From assembly GCF_016026235.1 (NCBI RefSeq), contig NZ_CP065613.1: a stretch of 64,000 nt of DNA; one strand, 5' to 3'. The first letter of the stretch is position 1; every line of letters starts with the position of its first letter. The position numbers and the translations under genes are program-made. The DNA is from Escherichia coli. Its GTDB lineage: Bacteria; Pseudomonadota; Gammaproteobacteria; Enterobacterales; Enterobacteriaceae. Shown here one piece after another: positions 17,535 to 54,634 of the stretch. Below the pieces are notes generated by a model. That model had not been told where the DNA came from, ran no database searches, and worked only from the letters and a program-made list of their open reading frames with translations.

Positions 17535-19118
17535 ATGGAATGGATTGCCGATCCGTCTATCTGGGCCGGGTTAATCACGCTGATTGTGATCGAACTGGTC
17601 CTCGGCATTGATAACCTGGTCTTTATTGCCATCCTCGCCGAAAAACTACCGCCGAAGCAGCGCGACCGCGCACGGGTTACCGGGCTGCTGCTGGCGATGT
17701 TAATGCGCCTGTTACTGCTGGCGTCAATCTCCTGGCTGGTCACCCTGACTCAACCGCTGTTCAGCTTCCGCTCGTTTACCTTTAGCGCCCGCGACTTAAT
17801 CATGCTGTTTGGTGGTTTCTTCCTGTTGTTCAAAGCCACGATGGAGCTGAACGAACGGCTGGAAGGGAAAGACAGCAATAATCCCACACAACGCAAAGGT
17901 GCGAAGTTCTGGGGCGTGGTGACGCAAATTGTGGTACTGGACGCCATCTTCTCACTCGACTCAGTGATTACCGCCGTCGGGATGGTCGACCATTTACTGG
18001 TCATGATGGCCGCCGTGGTTATCGCTATCAGCCTGATGTTGATGGCCAGCAAGCCGTTAACGCAATTTGTTAACAGTCACCCGACGATCGTTATTCTCTG
18101 CTTAAGCTTCCTGTTGATGATTGGCTTTAGCCTGGTGGCAGAAGGTTTCGGCTTCGTCATTCCGAAAGGCTACCTGTACGCTGCCATTGGTTTCTCGGTG
18201 ATGATCGAGGCGCTCAATCAGTTGGCTATCTTTAACCGGCGACGTTTTCTTTCCGCTAACCAGACGCTGCGCCAGCGGACTACCGAAGCGGTAATGCGCC
18301 TGCTTAGCGGGCAAAAAGAAGATGCGGAACTGGACGCCGAAACCGCGTCCATGCTGGTGGATCATGGTAACCAGCAGATCTTTAATCCGCAGGAACGGCG
18401 GATGATTGAGCGGGTACTTAATCTTAACCAGCGTACCGTCAGCAGCATTATGACGTCGCGCCACGATATTGAGCATATCGATCTCAACGCGCCGGAAGAA
18501 GAAATCCGCCAGTTGCTGGAGCGAAATCAGCATACGCGGCTGGTGGTTACCGACGGTGATGACGCAGAAGATTTGCTCGGTGTTGTTCACGTTATCGACC
18601 TGCTACAACAGTCTCTGCGCGGCGAACCGCTCAACCTGCGGGTGTTGATTCGCCAGCCGCTGGTGTTCCCGGAAACCTTGCCGTTGTTACCTGCCCTGGA
18701 GCAGTTCCGTAATGCCCGCACGCACTTTGCTTTTGTGGTGGATGAGTTTGGCTCGGTGGAAGGGATTGTGACATTAAGTGACGTCACTGAAACCATTGCC
18801 GGTAACTTACCGAACGAAGTGGAAGAGATCGACGCCCGCCATGATATTCAGAAGAATGCGGACGGTTCCTGGACGGCGAATGGTCATATGCCGCTGGAAG
18901 ATCTGGTGCAATATGTGCCGCTGCCGCTGGATGAAAAACGTGAATATCACACCATTGCCGGGCTGTTGATGGAATATTTACAGCGTATTCCAAAACCTGG
19001 CGAAGAAGTTCAGGTGGGGGATTATTTGCTTAAAACGTTGCAGGTGGAAAGCCATCGCGTGCAGAAGGTGCAGATTATTCCGCTGCATAAGGATGGCGAG
19101 TTGGAGTACGAGGTGTGA
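17535..19118 (+). CDS. yegH: TerC-family membrane protein with CBS and CorC/HlyC transporter-associated domains
   Basis: ORF track 17496..19118; start trimmed to [14 protein letters not shown]-terminal TM helices, C-terminal CBS pair. Confidence 0.85.
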
Positions 19119-19332
19119 TGGTATCGGTCATTTTACCCGATAGCCGAAAGGAATAAGATGAGGGAACCGCGCCAGCGGCGATTTACCGCCGGGAGCCCGG
19201 GTTGCCAGGGTGGTGGCGATTGAGCCACCCTGGCACGTTCACCGGCTTGAGCGTTCCATAGTAGTGAGGAACATCAAGTGAACGGAACAGCCTTCGATCT
19301 TACATATTCAGAATATAATGGTGCCGCCGCGA

Positions 19333-19375
19333 ACGCCTGATGCGACGCTTTACGCGTCTTATCAGGCCTACAGGA
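19333..19375. repeat. REP element between yegH and asmA
   Basis: GCCTGATGCGACGCTTTACGCGTCTTATCAGGCCTAC. Confidence 0.75.
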
Positions 19376-19391: not shown

Positions 19392-21245
19392 CTACATCTT
19401 CTCCAGCAACTTCTTCACATCCTTGCCATTGCGGGAATCTTTATTCCGCTCGGCCCAGTCATTCAGGCGACGTTTCGCTTCGTCCTGTAGATGTTTGCGC
19501 AGTAACTGATCCACTTGCAGACTGTAATTGAGTTGCTGCCAGTTGCCATAAACCCGCAGCGGTACTGGCGTTTCTTTGAGGAAATCAATCAGTTTGCTTT
19601 CCCCGTTCCAGCCACCCACGACCCGAATATCAAACTGGGTGTCGCAGGTTTGATCTGCCAGATTCAACATGCCTTCCCCTGTCAGCGCCAGCACAGGCGA
19701 TTGACCTTGCATGTCGTTTAACGTCACGACGCCATCCTTCAACGTCAAATCGGTGGTAAAGCGGTCAAGCCGCGTCACGTTATCAAAGTTTTCAGCGGCC
19801 TTCACATCACCGCCATTACGCTCTACCGCTTGCTGAATCATCTGCTGGAAGTTCATCCCTTCCATGCGCGTGTCGGTCATTTCGACATGTGCCTGTCCTT
19901 GCCAGTTGTGGCGGAATGCGTCGGCATCTATGTCAGCACCGGAGAAATCACCAGCCAGTGACATTTTTCCGGTCAACGAAATCGGATAGTTAAACGCCTT
20001 CAGAATGGTACCAATCTCAACGTTTTCCAGCCGTGGCTGGAAGTTTATCCGCGGATTTATTGATGTCGCGTCCAGCGTGCCCGGCAGTGAAACCTGTCCA
20101 CCGTTAAGTTTGCCCTGCAGTTGAGTAATTTCCAGCAAACCCGACTTGTTGGTCATTTGCGTGGCAACATCTGTAAAATTCATTCCGCGCCAGCGCACGT
20201 TACTGGCCTGCAACAAAATATCAGCCGTAAAGCCTTGCAGTCCCTGATAGGCCGGTTCATCAATACGCGAAGAAATGACCGGGCGCGGCAACGTTGATTG
20301 GCTCTGCCCCTGCTGCGCGGCACCGTTTTCACCATTCGCGGTTTCATTAAGCGGGATGAGGTTGTCAAGATTCAGTTGCGGGAATTGCAGTCTCAGCTGC
20401 CATTCCGGTTTCTCTGTCAGCGTGACCTGTGCTTGCCCGCTCAGCGTACTGTCATTGGCGGTCAAGCTGATTTGGTTAAATGAAAGGCGTTTATGTGACT
20501 CCTGCCACTGGGCCTGGAAACTCCCCTGCCCCTGAATACCTTGTTTGGGTAAATCGGCACCCTGCAACTGCCAGTTAATTTGTTCAATAGCCGCCGTTAA
20601 ATCATGCGGATAATCAGAAGCATCTACCGTACCGTTAAGGGATATTGTGAGATCGCGCTGATCGCGATTAACCCGCCCGGAGAACTCAAATGAGCCACGA
20701 TGTTGGGGATCTTGTTCCATTTGCAGGCGGATATTGCGGATTGTCACCTGCTCGTCATCTTCATGCTGGAACACCAGCACGCTGTCCGCCACCTTAAGAC
20801 TGGATATATCAAACGACCATCCGCGATCGTCTGACAGATCCGGCAAGGTATTGTCGCGCGGTGCAACCGGAGCGTCTTCACTGCGCACCGCTTCCGTCTG
20901 CGGCGTCAGTTGGATCACTGCCCCTTTTAGCATCACCTGCTTAACGCTCAGTTGATGACTCAGTAGTGGTAAAAGCGCCACGTCCAGACGCATGTTGTCG
21001 GCGCGAACCAGTGGCTGGCTTGCGCCCTGGGCGGTGAGAGACATTCGCCCAGAGAGGATACTAAGCTGCGGCCAGACGTGCCAACGCAGTGGCCCGTCGA
21101 GCTGCAATTGATAACCGCTACGTGCAGCAACTTGCTTGACCATATAGTCGCGGAAATCATTCGGATTCACCAGCAACACTAACGCAGATAACCCGGCCAC
21201 CAGCACGACCAGGAGTATCATCAGCGTCGTCAGAAATCGTCTCAT
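19392..21245 (-). CDS. asmA: AsmA outer-membrane assembly protein
   Basis: 617 aa; N-terminal signal-anchor MRRFLTTLMILLVVLVAGLSAL; large periplasmic domain. Confidence 0.9.
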   Translation of the reverse strand: MRRFLTTLMILLVVLVAGLSALVLLVNPNDFRDYMVKQVAARSGYQLQLDGPLRWHVWPQLSILSGRMSLTAQGASQPLVRADNMRLDVALLPLLSHQLSVKQVMLKGAVIQLTPQTEAVRSEDAPVAPRDNTLPDLSDDRGWSFDISSLKVADSVLVFQHEDDEQVTIRNIRLQMEQDPQHRGSFEFSGRVNRDQRDLTISLNGTVDASDYPHDLTAAIEQINWQLQGADLPKQGIQGQGSFQAQWQESHKRLSFNQISLTANDSTLSGQAQVTLTEKPEWQLRLQFPQLNLDNLIPLNETANGENGAAQQGQSQSTLPRPVISSRIDEPAYQGLQGFTADILLQASNVRWRGMNFTDVATQMTNKSGLLEITQLQGKLNGGQVSLPGTLDATSINPRINFQPRLENVEIGTILKAFNYPISLTGKMSLAGDFSGADIDADAFRHNWQGQAHVEMTDTRMEGMNFQQMIQQAVERNGGDVKAAENFDNVTRLDRFTTDLTLKDGVVTLNDMQGQSPVLALTGEGMLNLADQTCDTQFDIRVVGGWNGESKLIDFLKETPVPLRVYGNWQQLNYSLQVDQLLRKHLQDEAKRRLNDWAERNKDSRNGKDVKKLLEKM

Positions 21246-32492: not shown

Positions 32493-33786
32493 CTGAGGAA
32501 TCCCCAGAAAACAAGACAGGCATAGTGAGATGTGATCTAATTGATTGTGCTAACAATTTCAAGGAGATCACCACTATGCCTGCACGTTCATTATGCCAAA
32601 ATTTCCTTAACAACATACTGGCCCCTTTGCATCTTTACCGTCAAAAATCACTGATTGACGCAACTAATGCTGTAATAAATGGCGCTTCCCTCACACTTAC
32701 CAGTATCGGGCGTCATTTAACCGGTACGGCATCAGTTAAAAACAAAATAAAGCGGGTGGATCGACTGTTGGGGAATCGACATTTGCAAAATGAGGTTTCC
32801 ACCATTTTTCAGCGAATTACCCAAAAGATTACGCGGGGAATGTCTCGTGTTGTGATACTCATTGACTGGAGTGCTTATCATGCCTCTCGTTTTCAGCTTT
32901 TGCGGGCAAGCCTGGCATGTGACGGGCGTTCTTTACCGTTGATGAGTTGTGTCGTTCCATCATCACAGACAGCGAATGCAGATGTACATGAGCGTTTTCT
33001 GGAATCGCTTGCTGAGTGCTTTTCCCCCGGGACTGATGTCATTGTTATTACAGATGCCGGTTTTCAGGGGCGATGGTTCCAACAGCTCCGCTCCCGTGGC
33101 TGGACCTATATTTGCCGGGTACTGGGCAATCATTATTACAATGTTGGTAATGGCTGGGAAAAGGTGTCGGACTCAGGCACAAAAGCATCAACGACAGCAA
33201 TTTATTTAGGTGAAGGCCTGCTGGGTCGAGATAAAAATGCACAACATGAAGGGCATTTTTATCTTTATAAAAGTAAGCCTAAAGGTCGTAGATTTAAACG
33301 CTCGAAGGAAAGAGCAACCAGACCATCGGTGACGGCTAAAGCTCGTACTGCCGGGAAATCACCATGGTTTATTTTCACAAACAGTACTGAGTTCTCGCCA
33401 AAACAGGTAATGAAATTATACAGCCGTAGAATGCAAATTGAGCAAAATTTCAGGGATGAAAAAAATCCTCGCTGGGGATTTGGACTACGGTTTGGTGCCA
33501 GTCATTCATCCGGGCGGGTCACGGTATTGAGTCTGATCGCAACATTAGCCAGTATCATTATGTGGTTAAGCGGTTTCAGTCTGGAAAACAAAGGGATACA
33601 TCATAAATATCAGGCAAATACAGTGAAGCACAGGCGAGTCATCTCGTTATTAAAACTGGCGGAGAATGTGATTCGACATTCTCCACTCATACTAAACACA
33701 CTGTCACTTGACGCAGGGCTGAAAGTTCTACAGCAACGGTATACCAATATGATAATGGTTTACTAAATTTTCTGGGGATCCCTCAG
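32493..33786 (+). mobile_element. IS10-like insertion sequence (IS4 family), copy 1, 1294 bp
   Basis: Imperfect terminal inverted repeats CTGAGGAATCCCCAGAAAAC / CTGAGGGATCCCCAGAAAAT; flanking direct repeat GGGTTTCCCC (32483-32492 and 33787-33796; 10-12 bp depending on end assignment); encodes an IS10-like DDE transposase. Confidence 0.9.
32525..33766 (+). CDS. IS4-family (IS10-like) DDE transposase
   Basis: 413 aa; recognisable similarity to the IS10 transposase (KRVDRLLGNRHL, YSRRMQIEQNFRDEKN, HKYQANTVKHR); alternative start at MPARSL (32576). Confidence 0.9.
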   Translation: MRCDLIDCANNFKEITTMPARSLCQNFLNNILAPLHLYRQKSLIDATNAVINGASLTLTSIGRHLTGTASVKNKIKRVDRLLGNRHLQNEVSTIFQRITQKITRGMSRVVILIDWSAYHASRFQLLRASLACDGRSLPLMSCVVPSSQTANADVHERFLESLAECFSPGTDVIVITDAGFQGRWFQQLRSRGWTYICRVLGNHYYNVGNGWEKVSDSGTKASTTAIYLGEGLLGRDKNAQHEGHFYLYKSKPKGRRFKRSKERATRPSVTAKARTAGKSPWFIFTNSTEFSPKQVMKLYSRRMQIEQNFRDEKNPRWGFGLRFGASHSSGRVTVLSLIATLASIIMWLSGFSLENKGIHHKYQANTVKHRRVISLLKLAENVIRHSPLILNTLSLDAGLKVLQQRYTNMIMVY

Positions 33787-45281: not shown

Positions 45282-46707
45282 TAATGCCAGTCAGTTAAGC
45301 AACTGACTGGCTCTTTTTCGGGGCTGTGGGGTATTTCCAGGGCCTCTCCTTTACCACTCTCGGGAAGGCCCTTCCCCTTCTCGTCGGTAATTTCACAAGT
45401 TGTCCCATACTTGCAAGATCGCGCATCAGCTCCGGTATACGTCCCGGTGAAGCGCCCTGCAATGTCATCAGCATTCTCATCACCATTCCGCATGATTCTG
45501 AGAAACTCAGTTGATTCGGCCAGTAACCTTTCAGATGTTCCGCCATTTTAATCATCTGATATCTCACCAGATTATAAGCCAGTAAGACACCCCACAGCTC
45601 TTGCTCCACAAGCTCCGGCTTTTTACTTCTCAGCGTCAGCCTGCTCAGTTGCATCGTCTGTTTTATCTCCCTGTATCCCAGTTCGATTTCCCAGCGATGA
45701 CTGTACAGATCCGCCATTTCTCCTCCGGGGAAGCGCATGGCGTCCGTCATCGACGTCAGCAGATGGCAGACTTTTCCTTTGCGCGTCACGGTCAGCAGGC
45801 GGGCTGTCACTTCATTTCCCAGTCCCGGCCACTTTTTTCGTGCCTGCGGGCTGGTTTTCAGCTTCACCAGATGATCGCCTTTACCCAGTTTTCTGAGCTC
45901 TTCATATTGCGCTCCCTTTCTGAGAGGTATCATCCAGTGGCGGTGTTCTCCCGCCAGGCTCCAGGCATTTAACAGTCCCAGTGAGTAATAACCTTTATCC
46001 ATTAACGTCAGAGTGTTATCGCCGGTTTGTTCTATAAGTTGCTCAGCAAGCTCATTTTCGCTGTTCTTCATCGTGCCGAAGGCTGCAGCCGTCAGCAGAT
46101 GGCTGGTCAGTTCCATCTGGCAGACCATTTTGACCTGCGGGTAGAGCGCCGGGTTCCCGGCATGTGTCTGGCGGGGGAAGGCTGCATCGTTCTCTGGTGT
46201 ATCCGGTGTGCGCCAGAACACACCATCGATGGCCAGCAGGGTCAGGCCGCACCAGTGCGGATGCGGCGTGGCGTTATGCCAGAGCTGCGCTGTTTTCGTG
46301 AACACGCGGCGGACAGCCTCACTTCCCAGGCGCTGGCGGGCCTGAATAACGGCACTGGGGGCAACGAAGGGGCGATTGCCCGGCAGCATGATGTCCAGGC
46401 GATTCACAATCTGGTGAAGAGGTTCTTTACGCTCAAGCGCCATGCCAACAATACACCAGACCATCATTTCGAGGGGAAGACGGCGCTTGCGTAGCGTTAC
46501 AGTACCTGATTCGGCAAGGCAACGAGAGATGAGTTCGGGGTCGAGGTAATCCCCCAGAGAAGTCAGTGGGTTACGCAGAGAATCGTAACGGGATACCAGA
46601 TCAAGAGCCTGTCCAATGTGCATAAAAAAATCCGGAAACAAGTGAGCGTTTCCGGATTCTTACACAGCCACTGGATCGGTCAACTGATCCTTAACTGATC
46701 GGCATTA
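45282..46707 (-). mobile_element. IS4 insertion sequence, 1426 bp
   Basis: 18-bp imperfect terminal inverted repeats TAATGCCAGTCAGTTAAG / TAATGCCGATCAGTTAAG; 12-bp target-site duplication CACCTTTAGATG at 45270-45281 and 46708-46719; length matches IS4. Confidence 0.93.
45295..46641 (-). CDS. insG: IS4 DDE transposase
   Basis: 448-aa ORF (likely start at [13 protein letters not shown]); DDE motifs [30 protein letters not shown]. Confidence 0.92.
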
Positions 46708-49526: not shown

Positions 49527-49684
49527 ATGCATAAGCCCTATCCCTGGTCACCGTCTTCCATTGACCACATCGATAGAATCTCCCTTCATAGCACGATGCC
49601 TTTCACGTAACGGCATCGTGCTCGCACAGGTTCCGGCTAAGCACAACCAGAACGCGCATGTTTGACGCTTACCAAAAAATATTC

Positions 49685-53340: not shown

Positions 53341-54634
53341 CTGAGGAATCCCCAGAAAACAAGACAGGCATAGTGAGATGTGATCTAATTGATTGTGCTA
53401 ACAATTTCAAGGAGATCACCACTATGCCTGCACGTTCATTATGCCAAAATTTCCTTAACAATATACTGGCCCCTTTGCATCTTTACCGTCAAAAATCACT
53501 GATTGACGCAACTAATGCTGTAATAAATGGCGCTTCCCTCACACTTACCAGTATCGGGCGTCATTTAACCGGTACGGCATCAGTTAAAAACAAAATAAAG
53601 CGGGTGGATCGACTGTTGGGGAATCGACATTTGCAAAATGAGGTTTCCACCATTTTTCAGCGAATTACCCAAAAGATTACGCGGGGAATGTCTCGTGTTG
53701 TGATACTCATTGACTGGAGTGCTTATCATGCCTCTCGTTTTCAGCTTTTGCGGGCAAGCCTGGCATGTGACGGGCGTTCTTTACCGTTGATGAGTTGTGT
53801 CGTTCCATCATCACAGACAGCGAATGCAGATGTACATGAGCGTTTTCTGGAATCGCTTGCTGAGTGCTTTTCCCCCGGGACTGATGTCATTGTTATTACA
53901 GATGCCGGTTTTCAGGGGCGATGGTTCCAACAGCTCCGCTCCCGTGGCTGGACCTATATTTGCCGGGTACTGGGCAATCATTATTACAATGTTGGTAATG
54001 GCTGGGAAAAGGTGTCGGACTCAGGCACAAAAGCATCAACGACAGCAATTTATTTAGGTGAAGGCCTGCTGGGTCGAGATAAAAATGCACAACATGAAGG
54101 GCATTTTTATCTTTATAAAAGTAAGCCTAAAGGTCGTAGATTTAAACGCTCGAAGGAAAGAGCAACCAGACCATCGGTGACGGCTAAAGCTCGTACTGCC
54201 GGGAAATCACCATGGTTTATTTTCACAAACAGTACTGAGTTCTCGCCAAAACAGGTAATGAAATTATACAGCCGTAGAATGCAAATTGAGCAAAATTTCA
54301 GGGATGAAAAAAATCCTCGCTGGGGATTTGGACTACGGTTTGGTGCCAGTCATTCATCCGGGCGGGTCACGGTATTGAGTCTGATCGCAACATTAGCCAG
54401 TATCATTATGTGGTTAAGCGGTTTCAGCCTGGAAAACAAAGGGATACATCATAAATATCAGGCAAATACAGTGAAGCACAGGCGAGTCATCTCGTTATTA
54501 AAACTGGCGGAGAATGTGATTCGACATTCTCCACTCATACTAAACACACTGTCACTTGACGCAGGGCTGAAAGTTCTACAGCAACGGTATACCAATATGA
54601 TAATGGTTTACTAAATTTTCTGGGGATCCCTCAG
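53341..54634 (+). mobile_element. IS10-like insertion sequence (IS4 family), copy 2, 1294 bp
   Basis: Same element as copy 1, with at least two single-base differences (offsets 121 and 1087); flanking direct repeat GGATAAACTC (53331-53340 and 54635-54644). Confidence 0.9.
53373..54614 (+). CDS. IS4-family (IS10-like) DDE transposase
   Basis: 413 aa, protein identical to the copy-1 transposase. Confidence 0.9.
   Translation: MRCDLIDCANNFKEITTMPARSLCQNFLNNILAPLHLYRQKSLIDATNAVINGASLTLTSIGRHLTGTASVKNKIKRVDRLLGNRHLQNEVSTIFQRITQKITRGMSRVVILIDWSAYHASRFQLLRASLACDGRSLPLMSCVVPSSQTANADVHERFLESLAECFSPGTDVIVITDAGFQGRWFQQLRSRGWTYICRVLGNHYYNVGNGWEKVSDSGTKASTTAIYLGEGLLGRDKNAQHEGHFYLYKSKPKGRRFKRSKERATRPSVTAKARTAGKSPWFIFTNSTEFSPKQVMKLYSRRMQIEQNFRDEKNPRWGFGLRFGASHSSGRVTVLSLIATLASIIMWLSGFSLENKGIHHKYQANTVKHRRVISLLKLAENVIRHSPLILNTLSLDAGLKVLQQRYTNMIMVY

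Follow-up and report, generated by a model that had tools for sequence, protein, structure and literature searches.

TRIP1 repeats were first noted by Rudd in 1999 and have been surveyed in 6,725 genomes by Li et al. 2024, who list five loci (aqpZ-ybjE/lysO, putP-ycdN, yohI/dusC-yohG, alx-sstT and copA-ybaP) with flanking genes that are mostly transporters (PMC10888264). The RRS ("replication risk sequence") elements of Pham, Cox, Goodman and colleagues are 222-bp GC-rich sequences flanking the Ter macrodomain (PMC10287960, PMC11194060). [quoted passage not shown] The published terms for the structure are 'double-Y' (Li 2024) and 'extensive secondary structure' (Pham 2024). The copies in the lysO-aqpZ and yohP-dusC intergenic regions are RRS-lysO and RRS-dusC (PMC11194060; PMC10287960); Li et al. 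2024 (PMC10888264) call the same two regions TRIP1a and TRIP1c, and alx-sstT TRIP1d, and we speak below of the TRIP1/RRS family.

The DNA analysed here (the window) is a 64,000-nt stretch of an Escherichia coli chromosome in which the yegH ORF ends at 19118 and the convergent asmA, on the minus strand, at 19392, leaving 273 nt between them. A first-pass annotation, made from the letters alone, had pointed to a perfect 10-bp stem-loop in this region. The stem-loop is real and the inverted-repeat search lengthens its stem to 11 bp: arms TGCCAGGGTGG (19203-19213) and CCACCCTGGCA (19225-19235) form 11 perfect pairs with 11 nt between them, the whole reading TGCCAGGGTGG-TGGCGATTGAG-CCACCCTGGCA, and in the computed fold a T19214·G19224 wobble (U·G in RNA) can extend it to 12 pairs with a loop of 9 nt. 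Its distance of 86 nt from the yegH stop, counted between the start originally given (19204) and the ORF end, holds. So does the earlier view that this is not a standard intrinsic terminator: the sequence 3' of the hairpin, CGTTCACC, has no T-run, the stem is followed by CGUUCACC on the plus strand and ACCCGGGC on the minus strand with a U-tract on neither, and a promoter/terminator scan found zero terminator patterns at the hairpin. The REP said to follow is also present, and its palindrome can be placed exactly (Table 1).

Our reading, to which we assign a probability of roughly three in four, is that the yegH-asmA hairpin is a conserved helix of a decayed TRIP1/RRS member and most likely has a role at the RNA level that is incidental to its origin. 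Judged by homology and shared structure, the hairpin is part of a new, decayed and previously unlisted member of this known family: homology and fold fit TRIP1/RRS, but full length, G4 motif and orientation do not. Because the hairpin is one helix of a 5'-truncated repeat, its sequence and its conservation would stem from the family and not from the regulation of yegH or asmA.

Table 1. Features of the yegH-asmA intergenic region, in window coordinates.
Feature	Position	Strand	Remarks
5'-truncated copy of the TRIP1/RRS family, divergent subfamily 'A'	19134..19308	+	3' ~175 nt of an element of roughly 285 nt
Deletion junction	19134..19138		From alignment of the window with strains AZ159, GZEC065 and E15
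GGCGATTTACCGCC	19177..19190	+	In full-length copies GGCGAUUU, the 3' strand of long-range helix P1
Counterpart of the G4 20-mer, GGGTTGCCAGGGTGGTGGCG	19199..19218	+	Aligns with RRS GGGGGTGCAGGGGGCGGCGG (PMC11194060); G-runs shortened
Hairpin downstream of yegH	19203..19235	+	Stem of 11 perfect pairs and a U·G, loop GGCGATTGA; in the family fold, helices 10-11
Last hairpin of the element	19236..19284	+	CGTTCAC (19236-19242) pairs with GTGAACG (19278-19284)
REP palindrome	19335..19367		Adjoins the element and is separate from it; also present in strains that lack the element
Equivalent of MG1655 3' end 2139607 (+)	19240	+	yegH-strand transcripts, 5 nt past the stem
Equivalent of MG1655 3' end 2139566 (-)	19199	-	asmA-strand transcripts, 4 nt past the stem
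Equivalent of MG1655 Rho region peak 2139476 (-)	19109	-	90 nt further along the asmA-strand transcript

By blastn the window copy matches K-12 TRIP1a/RRS-lysO at 78% over 100 nt (E = 1e-11), and a full-length allele of the same locus from other E. coli strains matches TRIP1a at 85.7% over 189 nt (E = 3e-52). Per E. coli genome, a sensitive search with this long allele returned 3 places at the median and 10 at the most; the paralogs lie between lysO and aqpZ, between yohP and dusC and between alx and sstT, and also downstream of proX. When the window's own intergenic region was the query, the additional E. coli places mapped to the REP (query positions 217-256), and the hairpin itself gave no multi-copy matches of REP type and bears no similarity to the REP consensus palindrome. 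K-12 MG1655 holds full copies at lysO-aqpZ and dusC-yohP, and none of its copies is annotated. Neither yegH-asmA nor proX is among the five TRIP1 loci, and yegH-asmA is not one of the two published RRS. Homology to both TRIP1a (RRS-lysO) and TRIP1c (RRS-dusC) runs throughout the element, the multi-helix fold is shared helix by helix, and in position the hairpin corresponds to the RRS G4/hairpin. As in described members, the copy is GC-rich and intergenic, lies past a gene of membrane-transporter type, and varies between strains in presence and deletions. It differs in that identity between the yegH-asmA subfamily and TRIP1a is 78-86% over part of the length alone, and in that the window copy is without the 5' 178 bp, its G4 motif is degraded and its G-rich strand lies on the leading-strand template. 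At about 175 nt it falls short of the family's full length of 222-273 bp, which the long allele at the locus does reach.

The family extends well beyond E. coli. A pattern scan of one genome per bacterial species gave 35 loci; the hosts are Escherichia species, Pseudescherichia vulneris, Silvania, Lelliottia and Leclercia, plus three contigs labelled Bacillus, Chryseobacterium and Proteobacteria MAG, and by BLAST the element also occurs in Klebsiella, at up to 13 places in one chromosome. From sequence comparison, the window copy belongs to a divergent subfamily shared with the proX copy and with copies from the other genera (Leclercia, Lelliottia, Silvania and Pseudescherichia), which are its nearest kin; the subfamily is marked by the loop-proximal arm CCAGGGTGG and by the last hairpin CGTTCAC/GTGAACG. 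Several other origins were considered and set aside. The overlapping ORFs are short and unconserved and the covariation pattern is that of paired strands, not of coding sequence; as for a mobile element (MITE, IS end, phage or satellite immunity RNA), filled and empty alleles show neither terminal inverted repeats nor target duplications, the element has no phage match, and the apparent 'plasmid' matches are mislabelled chromosome fragments with housekeeping genes. The 'RSA' repeat of Blattner 1997 found no support and was dropped once TRIP1 had been identified.

Individual copies show further peculiarities. The yegH-asmA and alx-sstT (L009) copies both lie directly downstream of genes for TerC-family membrane proteins (yegH and alx), a placement that may be coincidence. 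The dusC-yohP copy (TRIP1c/RRS-dusC) stands in opposite orientations with different flanks in K-12 (L049:1603-1889) and in MS10711 (L008:2477-2763), in agreement with the forward/reverse counts of Li et al. 2024; in strains with this copy reversed, the lagging-strand template would not hold the G-rich strand. In strain CFIAFB20120266 an IS110-family transposase gene lies between yohP and an intact TRIP1c copy (L010:1200-2267). Five Lelliottia/Leclercia loci (L022, L023, L024, L035 and L042) have a diverged inverted copy about 330 nt upstream, forming head-to-head dimers and thus a palindrome of roughly 600 bp. Three loci (L013, L029 and L034) contain an insertion of about 90 nt that follows the ATAAG..GAGG segment, with extra hairpins, one of them with another AGGGAU loop (CCCCAGGGATGGGG).

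At the yegH-asmA locus itself the region is single-copy and of several lengths across 5,426 complete E. coli genomes. The longest of four aligned alleles is a 451-bp form with the full element (strain AZ159, NZ_CP019008), and the window is that form minus 178 bp, lost between two TACCC repeats; the remaining copy is 99.4% identical by blastn to positions 112-286 of the full-length allele. A different deletion gives a third allele (strain GZEC065), and in a fourth (strain E15) the intergenic region is 67 bp and keeps the REP alone. By counts that are approximate, the junction-specific one included, since the search joins split matches, the full-length allele is found in about 1,425 genomes (about a quarter), the window-type truncation in roughly 2,400, and other deletion variants or no element at all in roughly a quarter, so nothing at this locus appears to be indispensable. 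K-12 MG1655 has the same truncated copy as the window; the two relics are 98.3% identical, with an identical stem and one differing loop base. The missing 178 bp held the 5' strand of the long-range helix P1 (consensus helix 1, columns 24-31 paired with 159-166) and both A(Y/R)GGAY hairpins described below, and the window retains helices 8-12 only. Having lost its long-range partner, GGCGATTT (19177-19184) takes part instead in a local GGCG/CGCC pairing in the predicted fold of the intergenic region. Just past the yegH stop, at 19120-19146, a small hairpin pairs TATCGG (19122-19127) with CCGATA (19137-19142), and it exists only because the deletion fused TACCC to GATAGCC. The peak of a minus-strand Rho-dependent region, at 19109, sits just beyond it.

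We aligned 32 full-length copies from six genera, including Escherichia, Pseudescherichia, Silvania, Lelliottia and Leclercia. The consensus has 64 pairs in 12 helices, with 98.1% of cells paired across the 32 copies. Compensatory changes occur at 25 of these pairs, against 2-5 when the partners are slid by 1-3 columns, and no shuffle reached the observed covariation score. A long-range helix of AAAAUCGCC with GGCGAUUUU, together with inner helices, encloses two hairpins with A(Y/R)GGAY loops, and the 3' part of the fold consists of three hairpins, the middle one being the hairpin downstream of yegH. Six of the 11 modelled pairs of the latter show compensatory changes, as do 3 of the 7 pairs in helix 12, the last hairpin (CGUUCAC/GUGAACG versus CGCUCC/GGAGCG). 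The yegH-downstream hairpin exists in 17 distinct variants of 10-14 pairs each, among them CCAGGGTGG/CCACCCTGG, CAGGGGGCGGC/GCCGCCCCCTG and TTAAGGGGGC/GCCCCCTTAA. Eight of its stem positions show two to four types of pair, and the loop (GGCGAUUG or GGCGGCGA) is nearly constant. Because G·U cells far outnumber A·C cells in the alignment (116 versus 11), the strand that folds is the G-rich (yegH) strand.

These comparative data also settle the matter of chance. Perfect 11-bp hairpins with loops of 3-20 nt arise at a mean of 0.26 per mononucleotide shuffle of the window, compared with six distinct ones in the real sequence, and a single such hairpin is only mildly improbable by chance; chance is ruled out for this one because it is conserved with compensatory substitutions in 17 distinct variants at other loci and in other genera. 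The five other perfect hairpins of the window with arms of at least 11 bp and loops of 3-20 nt (33229-33264, 45286-45311, 46629-46658, 49590-49622 and 54077-54112) are probably terminators or REPs. The first-pass annotation had offered two readings, processing or stabilisation of RNA and binding of a protein, and had proposed conservation as a check. Conservation was found, the hairpin being kept with compensatory changes across the family copies. The first suggestion is partly supported, in that the hairpin is an RNA 3'-end element; its repeat origin had been missed. A palindromic site bound by a protein on double-stranded DNA would account for the perfect dyad symmetry, and yet the arms change freely between copies while pairing is kept, unlike those of a sequence-specific dimer site, G·U is tolerated far above A·C as in a folded single strand, and our search found no binding data, which leaves this explanation with very little probability.

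It is conceivable that selection has acted on the fold as such, with the TRIP1/RRS family being a strand-specific element whose 12-helix structure is maintained, possibly as RNA plus single-stranded DNA, beyond serving as a carrier of a G-quadruplex. This wider proposal, which we put forward tentatively and hold to be rather unlikely, is based on compensatory changes in every variable helix, on the tolerance of G·U but not A·C, and on the depth of the two subfamilies (at least six genera). The RRS G4 20-mer aligns with the upstream G-run plus the 5' arm of the homologous hairpin. As this G4-overlapping hairpin itself covaries, the question arises whether the polymerase block under selection is the hairpin, in place of the G4 or jointly with it.

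In full-length copies the 5' domain is similar to a described RNA motif, TwoAYGGAY (Rfam RF01731; Weinberg et al. 2010, PMC2864571), in that a long helix closes around a pair of hairpins whose loops are A(Y/R)GGAY. The full-length yegH and proX copies score 31.5 and 28.2 bits, respectively, against a gathering threshold of 43. The Rfam scan gave no TwoAYGGAY match for a Leclercia copy, and a scan of five paralog loci together gave nothing, probably because filters are stricter on 26 kb. With the narrower scans below threshold and none in Leclercia, we do not file the family under TwoAYGGAY; since the corresponding part is deleted from the window, the resemblance is in any case uninformative on the hairpin itself. 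The 5' hairpin loops of full-length copies (L004:309-452 at yegH-asmA; L007:2477-2640 at TRIP1a) are ACAUGGAUGU and UACAGGGAUGU; both match RUACARGGAUGU, the CsrA SELEX consensus (PMC2896534, PMC4347634), the second at 11 of its 12 positions. We found neither a CsrA nor a TwoAYGGAY link in the RRS/TRIP1 papers. Scanning the window region against Rfam produced no family for the hairpin, only noise and a sub-threshold match between naRNA4 (nucleoid-associated RNA 4) and the REP at 19296-19368 (33 bits; threshold 59.5). The neighbouring REP is an ordinary single REP and not a BIME.

Does the relic still act as an RRS? It lacks the intact G4 motif GGGGGTGCAGGGGGCGGCGG, and its 20-mer has a G4Hunter-type score of 1.15 compared with 2.3 for TRIP1a. 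The G-rich strand of the yegH copy is the plus strand at K-12 2.1396 Mb, and that of RRS-dusC, 90 kb away on the same replichore, is the minus strand; with the replichore assigned from the dif position implied by PMC11194060, and with a negative GC skew on the window's plus strand, as expected there, the G-rich strand of the relic falls on the leading-strand template and not, as in RRS, on the lagging-strand template. Given this orientation, the truncation and the degraded G4, RRS activity of the yegH-asmA relic would seem unlikely. Some residual effect at the DNA level is possible, since an in vitro study of 2026 found that a lagging-strand template with the C-rich RRS strand kept a weaker ability to block, stopping synthesis in about 66% of encounters. 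The relic could accordingly be imagined as a weak RRS that folds on the single-stranded template and occasionally stalls lagging-strand synthesis, and the strength of the folding would agree with that: both strands of the hairpin fold as DNA (-14.4 and -13.8 kcal/mol, z about -3), and for either strand of the entire 273-nt intergenic region the fold is far better than that of shuffles (z = -4.6 and -5.5). We nonetheless consider such an obstacle improbable. More than one third of the element is missing, long-range helix included, and the G4 20-mer is degraded; inverted RRS gives no RecA/SSB peak in vivo, as published; for MG1655, which carries this relic, two prominent RecA/SSB peaks alone have been reported, at lysO and dusC (PMC10287960); and the G4 sequence search by the RRS authors yielded no additional K-12 site (PMC11194060).

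At the RNA level there are direct measurements. The curated Term-seq table of Adams et al. 2021 for E. coli MG1655 (PMC7815308, supp. file 1) contains an 'orphan' 3' end at 2139607 (+), with average reads of 2,740 (LB OD 0.4), 2,875 (LB OD 2.0) and 4,207 (M63), and another at 2139566 (-), with 42,363 and 31,838 in two conditions; a Rho-dependent termination region peaks at 2139476 (-) with a Rho score of 7.7 and a significance of 1e-18 (PMC7815308, supp. file 2). As the hairpin maps to MG1655 2139570-2139602, these ends lie 5 nt (+) and 4 nt (-) past the stem, and the Term-seq check suggested with the original observation is positive on both strands. The plus-strand end is weak, with about 3,000 reads versus about 40,000 on the minus strand. 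The tables hold no 3' end at the neighbouring REP, and none at K-12 TRIP1a or TRIP1c, so an RNA-end role cannot be generalised to the family. The data come from MG1655 and not from the window strain, and Term-seq does not separate termination from processing.

The hairpin most likely works as a 3'-end barrier in both directions, for the messages of the convergent yegH and asmA. In this scheme transcripts of yegH (+) and asmA (-) would both run into the hairpin; polymerase would pass it, there being no U-tract, and Rho would end transcription further on, as shown for the minus strand in MG1655; 3'-to-5' exonucleases would then trim back to the stable 11-12-bp GC-rich stem, leaving ends 4-5 nt past it on both strands. 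Published measurements cover the 3' ends and the Rho region; the trimming step and any fitness value are our inference. REP and BIME elements are mRNA 3'-end stabilisers in E. coli. The yegH-asmA hairpin is comparable to them as a repeat-derived GC-rich stem-loop without a U-tract, in a convergent intergenic region and with RNA 3' ends at the base of the stem; it differs in having no sequence similarity to REP, and in MG1655 the ends are at the hairpin and not at the REP 100 nt away.

With intrinsic terminators the hairpin shares a stable GC-rich stem-loop past a gene and RNA 3' ends just after it, and a bidirectional factor-independent terminator, in which no U-tract is needed and RNA polymerase is halted on both strands by the GC-rich stem itself, would place ends at 4-5 nt past the stem, within the distances of hairpin-dependent termination. 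It is an unlikely solution in view of the negative terminator scan and the lack of a U-run on either side, and the Rho-dependent region 90 nt downstream on the minus strand implies that polymerase passes the hairpin. More serious is the possibility that the element is inert, a leftover of a dead repeat, its 3' ends arising without selection as they would at any stable stem in a region of read-through. The copy is truncated, there are at least four allelic states in E. coli, complete absence included, and in one Escherichia lineage (L016) the stem is weakened by substitutions. In keeping with this, we found no annotation or reported phenotype for the element, and a gene-name literature search on yegH and asmA gave nothing relevant. 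Against it, the 3' ends are measured, and of the 'orphan' ends listed nearby the one on the minus strand is among the stronger. We would put the odds of inertness at about even; it differs from the 3'-end barrier solely in whether the effect on 3' ends matters to the cell. For the element as a transcription unit we make no claim, since the upstream flanks we inspected have no conserved sigma-70 or sigma-54 promoter and a promoter scan gave none that was convincing.

In summary, the unexplained hairpin in the window can be identified as the relic of a repeat, and it marks the 3' ends of the transcripts of yegH and asmA. K-12 carries here a third remnant related to RRS, which lies 90 kb from RRS-dusC towards the terminus, is oriented the opposite way and is unlisted in the RRS papers and in the 6,725-genome TRIP1 survey. 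If the fold is indeed selected, yegH-asmA and proX would be two further, unlisted E. coli loci of the family. The TRIP1/RRS family as a whole splits into two old subfamilies, and the comparative data give evolutionary, and not merely thermodynamic, support to its fold, and this extends to the hairpin, a competitor of the proposed G-quadruplex. Naturally truncated, G4-poor variants such as this one offer ready-made controls for finding which part of an RRS triggers gaps.
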